Source: Leucoraja ocellata
Lineage: Eukaryota
Assembly: GCA_036785375.1 (NCBI GenBank)
Contig: JAWMAR010000603.1
Coordinates: 434,001 to 498,000, forward strand
DNA: 64,000 nt
Direction: 5' to 3'
The notes under the pieces were generated by a model, which saw only the letters and a program-made list of their open reading frames with translations, ran no database searches and had not been told where the DNA came from. Made by a program: the position numbers and the translations under genes. Positions within the stretch are counted from its first letter, which is position 1, and each line of letters begins with the position of its first letter. Below, piece after piece: positions 18,465 to 30,610 of this stretch.

Positions 18465-20348
18465 CTGCACGTTGAAAATAATAAGTACATGCACACTAAA
18501 TAGATGCCAAAATAATTCACGGTTGTTACAAGGTAAAGGCGCATAAACCTCCAAGTGCATAGTTTACTAACACAATCTGAACACTGGAGCCATTACATAT
18601 CAGTGATATCTCTTATTTATCTGAGGGACAAATTCTTAAAGCCAGGTAAAATTTCCAATGAGACAGCCTGCAAAACGTTGGTTTCTCCAACCGAGAGTCT
18701 TTGATGTGAGAAATGATCACGACGCCTCAATTAATTTATATGGAATGAAATGAAAATGTGGAACAGCAGCAGGCCATTGAACCCCTCAAATCAGATCCAG
18801 CATTCAACAAGATCATGGCAGATCTGTCACCACGAGCTCACCTTTGTCCCACATTCATTTTCCCCCCTTCTTATTCGATACAGAAAAATAATACACAACA
18901 AACACTACTTTGAAGTGGTGTCACAGTTGCAATATATGACATGTAACAGCCAGTTTGCTTACGGCAAATTTCACACAAACACCAATAGGTTACTGACCAT
19001 TTCATCTGCCAGGGGTGCTAGTTTATTTTCAAGTATTTTCAAAGCATGAGAGAAATCTCCTCCGTTCTCATTTGAAATAAATGCCAAGATACTTTTTTTT
19101 AATTAAATGTGCTTATGAGGGCATCAAGGATTTTTATTTTGATATCTCAGCTGAAGGATTTGTATTTTGATATCTCAGCAGAACCCCTTGGTTCTGTTTG
19201 AATTATTTGCACAGGATTTATCGAGTCTCTGGCCAGGACAAACTGATAACTAATTCTCCAGCACAAGAGTAAAGAGCAACACCAATGAAGCCACGCTTCA
19301 TACTTTTCTGAGAATACGGTAGCTAAAGGAGAGTATCACAAATTGAAGAGTATCACATTACCAAGGTCAACAACAGGCAGCATAGAGGGCCCTATTTAAA
19401 GATATACTATGAAAGATTACTGCAACAGGGATAAGTGAGTCAGGAATAAATCTCCCAGTCACAGAGAAAATGAACCTGAGATTTGCAAAGAAACTGATGG
19501 TCACTTGCCCAGCAGGTCACTCTTGGGTACTGAGTGAGTGTGTCTCATTAGGTATCTCAACCAGTTGTCAGATCCATAAAAGGTTGTTTGCATTCCTAAC
19601 AACAGAGGTACCAGTCTAGCTTCAATAATGGATATAAATAATAGGGGTTAAGTTATTTATTGGAGTACCCATTACTGCATCAAAAGCCCCCACATCATAG
19701 AAAGGGTCATTGCAATTGTGGAACAATTGGGAGAAGATGCATTTAAAAAGCTCTATGCAATGTTCTCTCATCTAACGCTGGTTTATATAATTACCACTCC
19801 TTCAGATTACAGGTTACCCCCCTGCATTGCATAGAGATTGCATTTCTTGAAAATGGTCCAAATCACAATATTCCGCGATGGGAAGCCATGTTACCTGCAC
19901 ACTCGTCAGGAAACGGCAGTTAACATTTTTGCATTAATTTACTTTTTCACATAGAAACCCTGAGAACGAATTCTGCATCTTAAATATTTGGGGAGTGATT
20001 GTGAGTTCTGTCAGAATGAATATCCATTACCCAAAAGACAGTAGCACAATGTTCACCTGCATATGGTTGGACAGGAAGCGTGCGCAGTTTAGTTCCTTCC
20101 TCAAACATGTCTCCTATACAGCAGGGAAGTTGACAATCAACATTATCCTATCTTAGACATGCAAAGGCTATTGCTGGGTGGAAAATCTGGGCAGGGGAGG
20201 GTATTTTGAGTACAATTTAGTTATCCATTACTGCCAGCAGATGAGATGATGATCATGTCTGAACATGTAACTTTAAATGTAAACAGCTCTGACGATGCTG
20301 ATAAATTACTGATCATGAAATTTAATAGTAAACCAAAGGCCTACTGAC

Positions 20349-20578
20349 CTCGAACTTGATGTTCCAAGTTAAGGATGACGGTAACTGCCTGATGAAGAAT
20401 AAGTAGTTTGGTTTGGGGTTTTTCACTTTTCAAGTGAAGTTGACACATTCGTCCAAGCTCTTTAAATGCTTCATTGATGTCTCTAACACGGAGACGCTCT
20501 CTGGCATTATTTGCCATTCTCCTATCACGCTCTCTTTCTGCTTTTTGCTCAGGATTAAGGTCCTCATCTTCATGTTGA
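20349..20578 (-). CDS. TCF12: TCF12 bHLH exon, [76 protein letters not shown]
   Basis: Class I bHLH domain; [18 protein letters not shown] is the HEB-type sequence. Acceptor ttacag, donor gtcagt, 230 nt, phase 2 to 1. Confidence 0.99.
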
Positions 20579-20692
20579 CTGTAAGTAATCAGTAAGAGGT
20601 TGGAGTAAGTGCTAGTAATGTATGACATTCAAGTGAAACCAGGATACACATCTACTACTGCCAAAAGGTAATTACGCATATCATAGACTTAC

Positions 20693-20855
20693 CTTGACCT
20701 TCCTCTAGATGGCATCTTGGGATCATTTTTGCATCCTTCATCATCTGACCTCTTATCGTCGGATGAGAAGGAATCGTTTGTGTTCTCATCTTTCTCTTCT
20801 GTTTTGACTTCTGGAGGACCCAAGACAGCAGAGTGACTTTGTAAACTTGACAGAC
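20693..20855 (-). CDS. TCF12: TCF12 coding exon, (G)LSSLQSHSAVLGPPEVKTEEKDENTNDSFSSDDKRSDDEGCKNDPKMPSRGRS(S)
   Basis: ORF track 20689..20892 with E-protein IK/VKTE..KDEN and SDD motifs. Acceptor cacag, donor gtaagt, 163 nt, phase 1 to 2. Confidence 0.95.
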
Positions 20856-20974
20856 CTGTGCAAAAAATATATTCATCCCAAGATAAAAACACTTTCTAAT
20901 TGTAAACTAAAAATAATTAGGGAGTTAGAATTCATAAAATATAATTTTGAATTATATTGCCATAAAAAAAATAC

Positions 20975-21089
20975 CTCTGTAGTTATCCTGTGCCTGGTTA
21001 TTTATTTCTGCACTTGAAGGGGGGGCTGTATTGGGGAGGATCGAATGGTTGCTATGGAGACCGACAGTTTCATCCCGATGAGAACCAAC
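20975..21089 (-). CDS. TCF12: TCF12 coding exon, VGSHRDETVGLHSNHSILPNTAPPSSAEINNQAQDNYR(G)
   Basis: Homologous to HEB VGTHREDSVSLNGNHS...QENYRG. Acceptor ttttgtag, donor gtattt, 115 nt, phase 0 to 1. Confidence 0.93.
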
Positions 21090-21660
21090 CTACAAAAGAT
21101 GACAGTTTAAGCCTTTAAGCCATAATCCAATTAATTTAAGCATAAAAATATCAACAAGAGAATCAATATTCCGCTGCTTAGATATAAATTGTTTAATAAA
21201 TGTATACAGAAATGTACAAAAACTAAATTGAATACAGCCAATTTTATATAATTATTAGCTGGGCACAGTGAAGGAGACTTGAGATAATGCAAAAGTACAA
21301 CATTTCTACTGCTTTCCCAGCTCACATTATGTATAACTGTAATCAAATAAAAAGACAATATGAATATCCTATTCCAGTGTTTTCTTATTCAATTCTTATA
21401 CCTATTTAACTTAATTTTCTCTATTTTCGCAAGTTGAACTCCACCCTCCACAATATCCTCTTCAGTTTGGCCTACAGACTTCAAAAGTTTTGAAATGTTC
21501 AATTGAGATCAGAAAGTTTGAAAAGTGTAATTGAACAGAGCTAAAACAGAGAAATTCAACACGAAGTACAAATGCAGGCTACCAACCTACATGTAGAACT
21601 GAATCTCAAATTTAGAAGTTGAATACTGAAACTACACATAATGCAACTAAAAACTCCTTA

Positions 21661-23256
21661 ATCCTAGGATATTCCCTAGGACATTGAGGGAAGTAAGTGT
21701 AGAAATAGCAGGGGCTATGACAGAAATATTTCAAATGTCATTAGAAACGGGAATAGTGCCGGAGGATTGGCGTACTGCGCATGTTGTTCCATTGTTTAAA
21801 AAGGGGTCTAAGAGTAAACCTAGCAATTATAGACCTGTTAGTTTGACGTCAGTGGTTGGCAAAGTAATGGAAAGGATACTTAGAGATAATATATATAAGC
21901 ATCTGGATAAACAGGGTCTGATTAGGAACAGTCAACATGGATTTGTGCCTGGAAGGTCATGTTTGACTAATCTTCTTGAATTTTTTGAAGAGGTTACTCG
22001 GGAGATTGATGAGGGTAAAGCAGTGGATGGTGTATATATGGACTTCAGTAAGGCCTTTGACAAGGTTCCTCACGGAAGGTTGGTTAAGAAGGTTTAATTG
22101 TTGGGTATTAATGGTGGAGTAGCAAGATGGATTCAACAGTGGCTGAATGGGAGATGCCAGAGAGTAATGGTGGATGGTTGTTTGTCAGGTTGGAGGCCAA
22201 TGACTAGTGGGGTGCCACAGGGATCTGTGTTGGGTCCACTGTTGTTTGTCATGTACATCAATGATCTGGATGATGGTGTGGTAAATTGGATTAGTAAGTA
22301 TGCAGATGATACTAAGATAGGTGGGGTTGTGGATAATGAAGTCGATTTTCAAAGTCTACAGAGAGATTTATGCCAGTTGGAAGAGTGGGCTGAAATATCG
22401 CAGATGGAGTTTAATGCTGATATGTGTGAGGTGCTACATCTTGGCAGGACAAATCAAAATAGGACGTACATGGTAAATGGTAAGGAATTGAAGAATGCAT
22501 GTGAACAGAGGGATCTGGGAATAACTGTGCACAGTTCCCTGAAAGTGGAATCTCATGTAGATAGGGTGGTAAAGAAAGTTTTTGGTGTGCTGGCCTTTAT
22601 AAATCAGAGCATTGAGTATAGAAGTTGGGATGTAATGTTAAAATTGTACAAGGCATTGGTGAGGCCAATTCTGGAGTATGGTGTACAATTTTGGTCGCCT
22701 AATTATAGGATGTCAACAAAAATAGAGAGAGTACTGATGAGTGTGCAGGTAACATGGCTTCCCATTGCGGAATATTGTGATTTGGACCCCTTACTAGAAT
22801 GCTGCCTGGGTTTCAGCAACTAAGTTACAGAGAAAGGTTGAACAAGTTAGGGCTTTATTCTTTGGAGCGCAGAAGGTTAAGGGGGGACTTGATAGAGGTC
22901 TTTAAAATGATGAGAGGGATAAACAGAGTTGACGTGATAAGCCTTTCCCACTGAGAATAGGGAAGATTCAAAAAAGGGGACATGACGAGAATTAAGGGAC
23001 AGAAGTTTAGGGGTAACATGAGGGGGAACTTCTTTACTCAGAGAGTGGTGGCTGTGTGGAATGAGCTTCCAGTGAAGGTGGTGGAGGCAGGTACGTTTTT
23101 ATAATTTAAAAATAAATTGGATAGTTATATGGACGGGAAAGGAATGGAGGGTTATGGTCTGAGCGCAGGTATATGGGACTAGGGGAGAATACGTGTTCGG
23201 CACAGACTAGAAGGGTCGAGATGGCCTGTTTCCGTGCTGTAATTGTTATATGGTTA
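21661..23256 (+). mobile_element. CR1 (HER1-like) LINE, 5'-truncated, RT region plus 3' UTR
   Basis: ORFs 21684..22097 and 22098..22823: NYRPVSLTS, DFSKAFDKVPH, SGVPQGSVLGP, KYADDTK, LVRPILEYGVQFWSP. One in-frame stop, a small deletion and a 55-bp foreign insert. 3' end ggcctgtttccgtgctgta. Confidence 0.95.
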
Positions 23257-23835
23257 AAGGCAGAAGTACAACTAATATTCTATTACAATCTGCTCCTGTT
23301 GTACAATCAGGATCTGATGGGCTGATTTAATATATTTTAGCAAAATATTAATATTGATTTATGCACCACAGCTGTTACAGTGTGATACAAATTACATTTT
23401 CGAAAGGTTCCAAAGTATTTTAAATGAAAACTAATCTAACTAGGTTAGAGCATATTTTAATACACAAGAAAATCTAACTATACAGAAAAACTTTCAAATG
23501 TACGATGAAAGGGGCAGGAGCAGGTTTCCAAATACTTTGTTGCTAATTATAAAGGAAGATGAAAAACAACAAATTCCATGAAGAGTTCACAGTTGTGTCA
23601 TTGTATCATGTTTTTGACTGCAGCGTTACAACGTTATCCTTTCTCCACACACAAAGGATAGTAAATTGACAAACACACTCCTGCACAATGTTGAAAATAA
23701 TTCAATGATTTTCAAATCAAGACAGATACGTTTCTGCTGACCAAGAAAGTCAATGGATATGGAGCCAAGACAGAGAGGATTTATTCAGATCCAAAGCCAG
23801 TTGGCTAGTTATAACCAGGGAAGCTGTCTCTGCAA

Positions 23836-24742
23836 GGTTACACAAAAAAGCTGGAGAAACTCAGCGGGTGCAGCAGCATCTATGGAGCGAAGGAAATAGG
23901 CAACGTTTCGGGCCGAAACCCTTCTTCAGACTGATCGGGGGCGAGGGTGGGTGGGGACAAGAAAGGGAAAAGGAGGAGTAGCCCGAAGGCTGGGGGATGG
24001 GAGGAGACAGCAGGGGGGCTGAGGAAGGGGAGGAGACAGCAAGGACTAACAAAATTGGGAGAATTCGATGTTCATGCCCCCGGGGTGCAGACTCCCCAAA
24101 CGGAATATGAGGTGCTGTTCCTCCAATTTCCGGTGCTGCTCGCTGTGGCCATGGAGGAGACCCAGGACAGAGAGGTCGGAGACGGAGTGGGAGGGGGAGT
24201 TGAAGTGCTGAACCACCGGGAGGTCAGCTTGGTTATTGCGGACCGAGCGGAGGTGTTTGGCGAAACGATCGCCCAACCTCCGCTTGGTCTCACCGATATA
24301 GATCTGCTGACATCTAGAGCAGCGGACGCAATAGATGAGGTTGGAAGAGATGCAGGTAAACCTCTGTCGCACCTGGAACGATTGCTTGGGTCCTTGAACG
24401 GAGTCGAGGGGGGAGGTAAAGGGACAAGTGTTGCATCTCTTGCGGTTGCAAGGGAAAGTGCCCGGGGAGGGGGTGGACCGAGAGGGAAGGGAAGAATTGA
24501 CAAGGGAGTTATGGAGGGAGCGGTCTTTGCGGAAGGCAGATATGGGGGGAGATGGGAAGATGTGGCGAGTAGTGGGGTCACGTTGGAGGTGGTGAAACTG
24601 ACGGAGGATTACTTTTTGTATGTGACGGCTGGTGGGGTGAAAGGTGAGGACTAGGGGGACTCGGCCCTTGTTGCGAGTGCGGGGATGGGGAGAGAGAGCA
24701 GTGTTGCGGGGTATGGAAGAGACCCTGGTGCGAGCCTCATTT
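23836..24742 (-). mobile_element. 5'-truncated Penelope-like element (Neptune-type): Cys-rich linker, GIY-YIG endonuclease, 3' UTR and terminal repeat with hammerhead-like motif
   Basis: ORF 24046..24828 contains VPLVLTFHP, CNRKRCNTC, LIYCVRCSRCQQIYIGET..RF.KH and GMN, an intact reading frame. Perfect 15-bp TSD aagctgtctctgcaa at 23821-23835 and 24743-24757. Confidence 0.92.
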
Positions 24743-24917
24743 AAGCTGTCTCTGCAATCTCCAGACAGCTTTCTCCTGCAATAAAGAGCCCAGCAAATCA
24801 TGGTTTCACTGTATTTGTTGAAAGGCACATGTATTAAAAAATGACTAAAGTCAGCGGATCACCAATTTAGGTTTAAATTAATTCCACCATTACTCATTTT
24901 CAGCTTGATCACACAGA

Positions 24918-25779: not shown

Positions 25780-27100
25780 CAGGAGTCAAGAGTGAAGTGT
25801 GTTTAATTGTGGCATGTACCAGCAATTGAATAATGAAATTGTTCTTTGCAGCAGCATAACGGGCCCAAAATTGCGACACACCAATAAAAAGTAATTATAT
25901 AAGCTAATAACCGTAATACTAGGTAGCCATAACAGTACAAAACAGAAGTCTGTAGTGCAACCATAGCTCCAATCCACAGAAGTATATAGTTGCTGAGATG
26001 AGTGTTGTGTTGTATTTAAAAGCCTAATAATTGCTAGGAAGCAATTCTTGAACCTGGTTATCATGGTTTTCAGGCTCCTGTACCTTCTTCTCAATGGTAG
26101 GAACGATATGAGAGCATGGCCGGGTTGGCGTGGGTCTTTGATGATATTGGCTGCCTTTTTGAGGCGGTGCCTCCTTCAGATTCTTTGGATGGTGGGATGG
26201 TCATAACTTGTGATGGACTTAGCAGTGTCTACCACTCTGTAATCTCCTTCAGTCCTTGGCATTCGAGATGTCAAACCAGGCGTGCAGTTTTATCTCTCTA
26301 CCATACACCTGTAGTTCAATGGAGTATCCATCAACAGACCATATCTTCGCAATCTTCTAGGGAAGCAGAGACACTGATGAGCTTTCTTTGTCATTCGTCA
26401 ATATGCACACTGGGGAACTTGAAGATCATTAGATGGGAGCAGAATTAGCCCTTTCATGTCTACTCTGCTATTCAAACATTGCTCATCTATGTCTCCTTCC
26501 TAACCCCATTCTCCTGCCTTCTCCCCATAACCTCTGACACCCATAGTAATCAAGAATCTATCTCTGCCTTACTTTGCCTCCACAGCCTTCTGTGGCAAAG
26601 AATGTCACAGATTCACCATCAAGAAGTTGACTCTTTCCACCCCCGTCCATCAATGAAAACAGGCTTGTGGGTCTTCTCCTTTCCCCTCCTGATGTCAACA
26701 ATCAGCTCCTTGGTCCAGCTGATAAGAGATCAAGATTGTTGTTCTGGAACCATTCAATCAGATTTTCAGTCTCCCTTCTGTACTCTGACTTATTATTGCC
26801 GAATATTCGTCCAACAATGGTGGAATTGTCGGCAAATTTAAAGATGGCATAGGAACTGGAGAACGTGGAAAGTAGAACAGGAGACGGAGTACACAGCCTT
26901 GAGGTGTTCCTCTGTTGACATTTATCGAGGAGGAAGTGTTGTCAATTAATACTGATTGTGGTCTGTCAATGAGGAAATTGAGGATCCAGTTATGGAAATT
27001 GGATGAGCAGGGACCAGTATTCTGAGTCTGATATGTTTGGAGTTGATGATGGTGTTGAATGCTGAGCTGCAGGCGATGAAGAACAATCTGGCGTACATGG
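25780..27100 (-). mobile_element. Degenerate Rex1/Babar-type element with an internal CR1 3'-tail fragment (about 26430-26620)
   Basis: ORF fragments [18 protein letters not shown] and RRRYRSLKTMITRFKNCF, with many frameshifts. Confidence 0.75.
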
Positions 27101-29139: not shown

Positions 29140-30610
29140 CTGACCTAGATAGAGTGGATGTAGGGAAGATGTTTTAACTAGAAAGAGATTCGAGGACCAG
29201 AAGGCACAGCCTCAGTATAAAAGAACATATCTTTAGAATGGAGATGAGAAGGTATTGCTTTAGCCAAATGGTGGTGAATATGTGGAATCCATTGCCACAG
29301 ACAGCAGAGGCTAGCCACAGGCAGCAGAGGCTAATTCATCGGGTATTTTTAAAGCAGAGATTGATAGGTTCTTGATTACTAGAAGGGTGTCACAGGCTAT
29401 GGGAGAAGGCAGGAGAATGGGGTTGAGTGAGAAAAAAAAAGACTATGGTCCAAATTATCTAATTCTGCTCCTACTGTATTTTTTATGAACTTCAATCTTT
29501 TTGTTTTTCAGTTTTTGTAAAAATATACAACGTATTTTTTTAAAAAGAGCCAAAACTGGGTCCAAAGACTGAGAGGGCATATGTTATATGAAACAAGCTG
29601 CCATAAATAGCCGAGGCAGATATAATTACGTTTGGATACATGGATAGGGAAGAAGTAGATTGATGCAGGTCAATGCAGACATATGGGATTGGCGTAGAAA
29701 GGCATCATGGTAGGCATTGATGAGGTGGTTTGCAAGGGCCTGTTTCTGTGCAGTACAACTCTATAATTCTAACAATAATTCTTAATTAAAAATGAACACA
29801 AAAATTCTAATTGTTGGTCAGATGGTTTAACGTAAAACGCAGTTATAACATATGTCAGTTATTTGGATGAAGCAGCTAAATATAGTATCTCCAGATCTGC
29901 AGTCAGCACACGGCTGGGGGAAATGTAAGTTGTGAGGAGAATGCAGCGGCCATAATTTGATTTAGACTAGTTGGATGTGGCAAAATGTATGGCAGATGAC
30001 TGAAAGGTTATTTAACAGAAAAACATAACATGAATGGAAAGGGATAAGGTGCAAGGAAGGTGCCCTTGTGCACCAGTTGCTGGAAATAAGTATTTGGATT
30101 TGAGCACAGGAGCAAGGATACTTTGCTGTAAGCATACAGGACCTTGGTCAGACCACATCTCAAATACGTGCAGTTTTGGTCTCCTTCTCCGAGGAAGGAC
30201 GTTCTTGCCATGGGGGCAGTGCAACAAAAATTTACTGGAGTAATTCCTGCGACCGATGTATGATAGAAAATTGGAACAATTTGGCCTATATTCACTTGAC
30301 TTCAAAAGAATGAGTAGGATCTCAGAAACCTATAAAATTTGAATTTGAAATGGACTAGCCAGACTAAATGATAGAGGACCATCCAGAAAGTTCCGGAGTG
30401 TAGAATTCTGAGAGCCCCTGGATAATAGCTCTTCTATTTAGATTTGATATCAGGCAAACTTTCTCCACATGGATAAATATGTTGAATTCTCTACCACAGA
30501 AGGCAAAGACAGCCAAGTCATTATATATATTTAAAGAGGAGATAGGTATGAAACACAGAAGTGGAGCTTTGACCATGATCATATTAAATGGAGGAGCTGG
30601 CCTCCACCTC
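29140..30610 (+). mobile_element. Cluster of degenerate CR1 3' fragments
   Basis: gaggaccagaaggcacagcctcag, ttggtcagaccacatctcaaatac..cagttttggtctcc and aagggcctgtttctgtg. Confidence 0.7.

Follow-up and report, generated by a model that had tools for sequence, protein, structure and literature searches.

A 5'-truncated CR1-type LINE (long interspersed nuclear element) in a 64,000-nt stretch of the skate Leucoraja ocellata genome (contig JAWMAR010000603.1, positions 434,001 to 498,000; hereafter the window, whose numbering is used throughout) carries within its body an inverted copy of single-copy intron sequence from the gene in which it lies. The copy, at 22734-22788 on the plus strand, is the reverse complement of the donor at 19855-19909 (minus strand) at 53 of 55 bases, a match proposed by a first-pass annotation of the sequence and confirmed here by direct comparison; extended to 66 nt, it has a blastn E value of 3e-19, and the two arms are spaced 2,824 nt apart. 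The insert is a real, single-copy and locally templated inverted insertion. As to its origin, we favour, with modest confidence, a template switch during integration of the LINE, on RNA or on exposed DNA, over the repair of a later break.

The expectation that the 55-mer would be confined to this locus proved correct. A whole-genome search with the donor, which passes over very common words, returned four matches: the pair in the window and the equivalent pair on a second contig, C391. This contig is collinear with the window contig (413,051 aligned bases, 4,755 mismatches) and, judged by that alignment, is most likely the unpurged second haplotype. Both haplotypes carry the CR1 with its insert and each has different private changes, so an assembly error is very unlikely. 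The haplotypes also differ at 23835-24743, where the window has an insertion of about 900 bp into a fold-back element that C391 is without.

Copying ran from the intron into the LINE. We compared the assembled contigs of four of 23 listed short-read runs (X1, X3, X15 and X18). In X18, which is from a related organism, a single contig joins 21661 to 23255, the empty CR1 site, and contains the donor, which is present in all four runs; in X1, X3 and X15 contigs run into the CR1 at both ends. As X18 combines the donor with an empty site, the donor is older than the LINE. The same direction follows from 84 other copies of the family (116.7 kb of CR1 sequence; 56 chosen on regions away from the site, 78 spanning it), none of which carries the insert, as had been anticipated for the subfamily. 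A source element already carrying the insert was rejected on the genome search and the family copies. Another locus matches 32 of 36 bases of 19838-19873; it was present as a contig in X15, X1 and X3 and absent from the search of the animal's own genome, and is perhaps an old repeat remnant.

The first-pass annotation had also derived the CR1 copy from the intron, on the argument that both differences between the arms are CG>TG changes in the CR1 copy; the direction holds on the evidence above, and the argument is half right. At 22738 the CpG has decayed in the window CR1 copy and is retained in C391. At 19877 it is the window donor that changed, the base being A in C391, in all four runs and in the insert. 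The C391 insert equals the donor (with A at 19877) over 59 of 59 bases (19851-19909), which on this comparison makes it identical to the ancestral donor.

That the insert is an assembly artefact, a shared repeat or an ordinary part of a CR1 subfamily is very improbable. No contig crossing an insert junction was found in X1, X3, X15 or X18 in two passes, and assembled contigs drop such paths, so that this absence carries no weight either way; X15 shares donor alleles with C391 and probably carries the insert, and its contigs showed no insert junction either. Against an artefact stand the two haplotypes with their different private changes; a repeat or subfamily origin is opposed by the mere four genome matches and by the insert-free family copies. 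An Rfam search gave no match at either arm, its one weak, chance-level match lying away from both.

Relative to 28 family copies, the CR1 has gained 47 nt net (22742-22788) and shows no net loss of its own sequence. The earlier view that the insert replaces about 10 nt of CR1 was not upheld; instead the first eight inserted bases stand for eight similar CR1 bases, and at most seven bases were replaced. At this left junction (22734-22741, plus strand), the family alignment shows donor-type bases that match the common CR1 allele (75 of 79 copies) at six of eight positions and a minor allele (3 of 79) at seven of eight, the exact bases at the junction numbering one and four, respectively. T at 22735 as the pre-insertion allele, suggested by L028, is a minor option, as it occurs in no more than 3 of 79 copies and A is the base in most of the nearest ones. 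An extra A in the run at about 22718-22722, left of the insert, is present on both haplotypes and in none of the 28 aligned family copies.

To the right, CR1-type bases are kept at 22789-22799 (plus strand), as judged from C391 and the family copies. The homology available for priming on the donor side, 19844-19854 (minus strand), matches the CR1 right of the insert at 9 of 11 bases, the last four exactly. This exact 4-nt microhomology is present in C391 and the family; its first two bases are altered in the window haplotype, where 22789-22790 reads CC, compared with AT in C391 and 27 of 28 family copies and AC in the remaining one, and CC appears from this alignment to be a later private change. 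Both junctions are homology-guided. Of 2,000,000 random pairings, one matched as well at both ends, by criteria picked after the junctions had been seen. Between 12 and 33 kb of the window, ten sites are equally good for priming; five of these also offer re-entry, and because three of the five would give a direct copy, orientation is not dictated by sequence. The CR1 cDNA corresponds to the bottom strand, and the pre-mRNA has the sense of the donor minus strand. Since the stronger primer lies on the right, synthesis was likely on the cDNA strand; alternatively, it may have started on the top strand from a trimmed end.

The host gene is encoded on the minus strand and two of its exons sit between the arms. 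One is an E-protein basic helix-loop-helix (bHLH) exon of 230 nt (20349-20578, minus strand), supported by its splice sites, by Pfam HLH and by E2A and TCF4 chains, which are the nearest solved structures of the domain; the other is the preceding coding exon of 162 nt (20693-20854, minus strand), also bounded by splice sites. The donor lies downstream of the bHLH exon. The gene is provisionally TCF12, a name suggested by its sequence and weakly by an Atlas lead (score 0.77). The LINE (21666-23253, plus strand; identified by Pfam RVT_1 and family copies) is antisense in its intron and has a broken reverse transcriptase (RT) domain and a 3' tail of 8-nt repeats, with TTAA flanking it on both sides (21658-21661 and 23254-23257). 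Its assignment to CR1, made by the first-pass annotation, is presumptive; a tail of short tandem repeats is a mark of CR1. As the first-pass annotation stated, the insert reads in host-gene sense on the CR1 sense strand. At the 5' junction, four bases (21662-21665, plus strand) are foreign to the family, nine copies of which differ here; the 10-bp palindrome at 21661-21670 is due to them, and they also duplicate bases of the flank. They were probably templated, and their palindromic nature fits templated end joining in the same integration.

In the route that we favour, the CR1 cDNA would have left its RNA about 465 nt into target-primed reverse transcription, and its 3' end would have annealed to the donor (9 of 11 bases, with an exact run of four), 1.75 kb from the target site. 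Extension for 55 nt leftwards on the donor minus (gene-sense) strand would have continued until the end resembled the next eight CR1 bases, whereupon the cDNA could re-pair at the next CR1 base and CR1 synthesis resume. The template would have been either the nascent pre-mRNA of the host gene or exposed single-stranded DNA of that strand, with about equal chances.

The insert is a single case of a kind of copying known from human LINE-1 (L1) and from DNA repair. For somatic L1, 22 templated insertions are reported, typically shorter than 250 bp and with the template within 15 bp of the site (10.1101/2024.08.27.596794), and for engineered L1 three are described with nearby genomic templates (PMC11702581). 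In these as in the skate, a non-LINE host segment of less than 250 bp from near the insertion is duplicated into the element; theirs, however, typically lies at most 15 bp away, whereas here the donor is 1.75 kb from the CR1 5' junction, the copy is mid-element with an exact return, the element is a CR1 and the product is inherited, with a timing at integration that is presumed rather than observed. One somatic L1 is described as having co-inserted nearby precursor mRNA (PMC10191854). The CR1 insert shares with it local intronic sequence in an orientation compatible with RT strand switching, being sense-strand host intron that is also sense to the LINE, but that report concerns a single somatic case and the skate template may be RNA or DNA. 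Same-sense chimeras are the prediction given for RT template switching.

Germline inverted duplications in the 1000 Genomes data are described as mostly shorter than 1 kb, within 5 kb and not typically linked to retrotransposition (PMC4617611). At 55 nt, inverted, and thus below 1 kb and less than 5 kb from its source, the germline skate insert resembles them, and it differs in sitting inside a young LINE. Templated insertions of the microhomology-mediated break-induced replication type (MMB-TIs) are reported to be inverted with flanking microhomology, with germline variants known and the template defined as lying within 100 bp (PMC8421209); the CR1 insert has microhomology at both junctions and a template further off than that. 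In zebrafish, LINEs of the L2 clade are reported to have extra 5' nucleotides derived from their flanks (PMC4245944). The four extra 5' bases of the CR1 match this pattern of flank-derived addition at integration, while the zebrafish bases lie at the 5' junction and come from the immediate flanks and the 55-nt insert is internal. Templated sequence insertion polymorphisms (TSIPs) are described in two classes (PMC5110952): the target-site duplication and poly(A) of Class 1 were looked for at the insert and neither was found, and the distant-region patch of Class 2 contrasts with the local donor here. A literature search for a CR1 or shark case of such local capture found none, which is no proof of absence.

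Other local copies in the genome provide a background for the event. A self-search of 1,229,701 bases of C391 for low-copy pairs 50 bp to 20 kb apart found 13; setting aside the CR1 event and two inverted pairs of short spacing, taken by eye for the terminal repeats of small elements, and adding one further pair left 11. For the most part these copies are direct and found at the ends of elements; 7 of the 11 abut a repeat edge within 12 bp, with 0.24 expected per pair (P = 0.006) under a same-procedure null in which 19 of 150 random low-copy segments abut an edge. The P value becomes 0.015 without one probable low-copy LINE tail and 0.04 without a pair whose boundary was extended by eye; a first null (P = 5e-5) was too lenient and was replaced. 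A repeat edge beside a duplicate can also be created by later insertion into an older duplicate.

The chief rival to a switch during integration is later repair, which we regard as a serious possibility if somewhat less probable. Here a break or stalled fork at about 22741/22789 in the resident CR1 would have been resolved by a DNA template switch resembling MMBIR, synthesis-dependent strand annealing (SDSA) or polymerase-theta repair: one end primes on the donor 2.8 kb off, copies 55 nt and rejoins, with the LINE as a bystander. Such an event would match the human inverted duplications and the inverted templated insertions with flanking microhomology, and a blunt break without loss would account for both junctions. 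Away from the CR1, 4 of the 11 other local copies lie apart from any detectable repeat edge, and a 475-bp local copy found only in C391 belongs to a TA-flanked inverted-repeat element probably formed without an RNA step, so that DNA-templated copying over kilobase range appears to occur in this genome. Timing bears on this rival. The haplotypes share 17 non-majority sites in 1,520 (four in no other copy and four in one other) and have nine private changes each; given so few shared non-family changes beside nine private ones, only a short time separates integration from the haplotype split, and the insert arose at integration or shortly after. A later repair had therefore to hit 1.6 kb in a short interval, for which the rough expectation is 0.00007-0.0006 per copy, compared with a rate of local capture at edges of about 0.005 for each repeat segment, internal returns being a minority; these rates are crude and rest on few events, and the priors for the two routes are of similar size. 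Dating by divergence was tried and had no power. Repair also gives no reason to expect this polarity or a gene-sense orientation, and makes the bases of the left junction a coincidence, while re-entry onto an RNA template leads one to expect donor-type bases on the left, as observed. Junction polarity and orientation thus tip the balance modestly towards a switch during integration, and junction polarity together with the pattern of the other local copies favours it.

Several observations weigh against a switch during integration. In the L1 reports the template typically lies at most 15 bp from the site, far closer than the 1.75 kb seen here; the other local copies differ from this one in being mostly direct and placed at the borders of elements; and size, distance and orientation fit the human inverted duplications that are not typically tied to retrotransposition. 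Internal switch-and-return is, on the copies aligned, no habit of the family, as the 84 copies (116.7 kb) contain no internal non-repeat insert, the inserts found being nested repeats. The zero differences between insert and donor on the stem would be expected with either timing (P = 0.56-0.75). Finally, the donor lies downstream of the target in the direction of transcription, which we infer to be awkward for nascent RNA on a stalled polymerase. With respect to the template, exposed DNA during integration and nascent TCF12 pre-mRNA copied by the CR1 RT are each, taken singly, a tentative proposal. In favour of RNA, the template strand is gene-sense and intronic; the insert has the same sense as the CR1, which is what RNA switching would produce; the strand laid bare by resection of the left flank would presumably be the opposite one; and there is one human precedent. 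The agreement in strand would, however, come about by chance half the time, the strand displaced at an R-loop or fork is identical in sequence, and most published local L1 templates are interpreted as DNA. The 55 intronic bases are identical to the ancestral donor, with no splice junction, editing mark or similar sign of RNA. The two mechanisms offered by the first-pass annotation, RT template switching and break repair, both remain live, its pre-mRNA template being about as likely as exposed DNA.

Several local copies were noted individually. The C391-only insertion at L067:4980-6520 (C391 about 656281-657818), a TA-flanked inverted-repeat element, consists of a short left-end fragment, the 475-bp direct copy (97.5%) and then a whole element; the source is unique DNA 5.6 kb away (L066:8923-9397), and we take the arrangement to resemble composite insertions of DNA transposons. 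A 447-bp direct copy (94%) of L082:4311-4755, 5.7 kb away, lies at L081:8172-8618 on both haplotypes, where a common fold-back element borders it with a full copy on one side and a partial arm on the other. L184:8017-8091, precisely where a LINE fragment is truncated at its 5' end, is a 78-bp direct copy of L184:6636-6713, 1.3 kb away, and L152:97-176 an 81-bp direct copy (97.5%) of L151:9560-9640, 457 bp from its source, adjoined and possibly enclosed by an element that we assume to be Penelope-like. At L186:7848-8461 an inverted copy of more than 360 bp of L186:6891-7324, 0.5 kb away, ends at a repeat tail and is broken by a later fold-back element. A 107-bp direct copy from 2.1 kb away (L166:9785-9891) has a fold-back element on one side and, on the other, GC-rich sequence resembling the beginning of a gene or retrocopy. 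Two inverted candidates were discarded: a 123-bp local match at L249 was a common LINE tail, and a second pair in the window (26502-26562 and 29363-29424) was repeat sequence that failed the low-copy filter.

The two arms could pair in the pre-mRNA as a predicted 55-bp RNA duplex of -99.7 kcal/mol around the two exons, which total 392 nt and would be out of frame if skipped. The arms carry 4 private substitutions, two of them at CpG, where 1.3 would be expected (P = 0.045), so conserved pairing is not indicated; on sequence grounds the duplex gives no sign of function, and the product is likely a neutral scar.

A single event proves no mechanism, and the value of this one lies in being a clean, datable example with an empty-site relative. 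The fullest version of the account, in which the CR1 RT switched in mid-element to nascent pre-mRNA of its target gene, returned to the next base and left an inherited product, and in which most small non-tandem duplications of skate genomes moreover stem from short local captures at element insertion and so form natural material for telling RNA from DNA templating, we consider unlikely as a whole. The insert does point to a genome-wide question, that of strand bias as an indicator of RNA versus DNA templating. If true, a mid-element switch-and-return over kilobase range would extend what is known of human L1 to a non-L1 LINE in the germline, and would mean that the host sequence open to capture in LINE integration reaches far past the target site.

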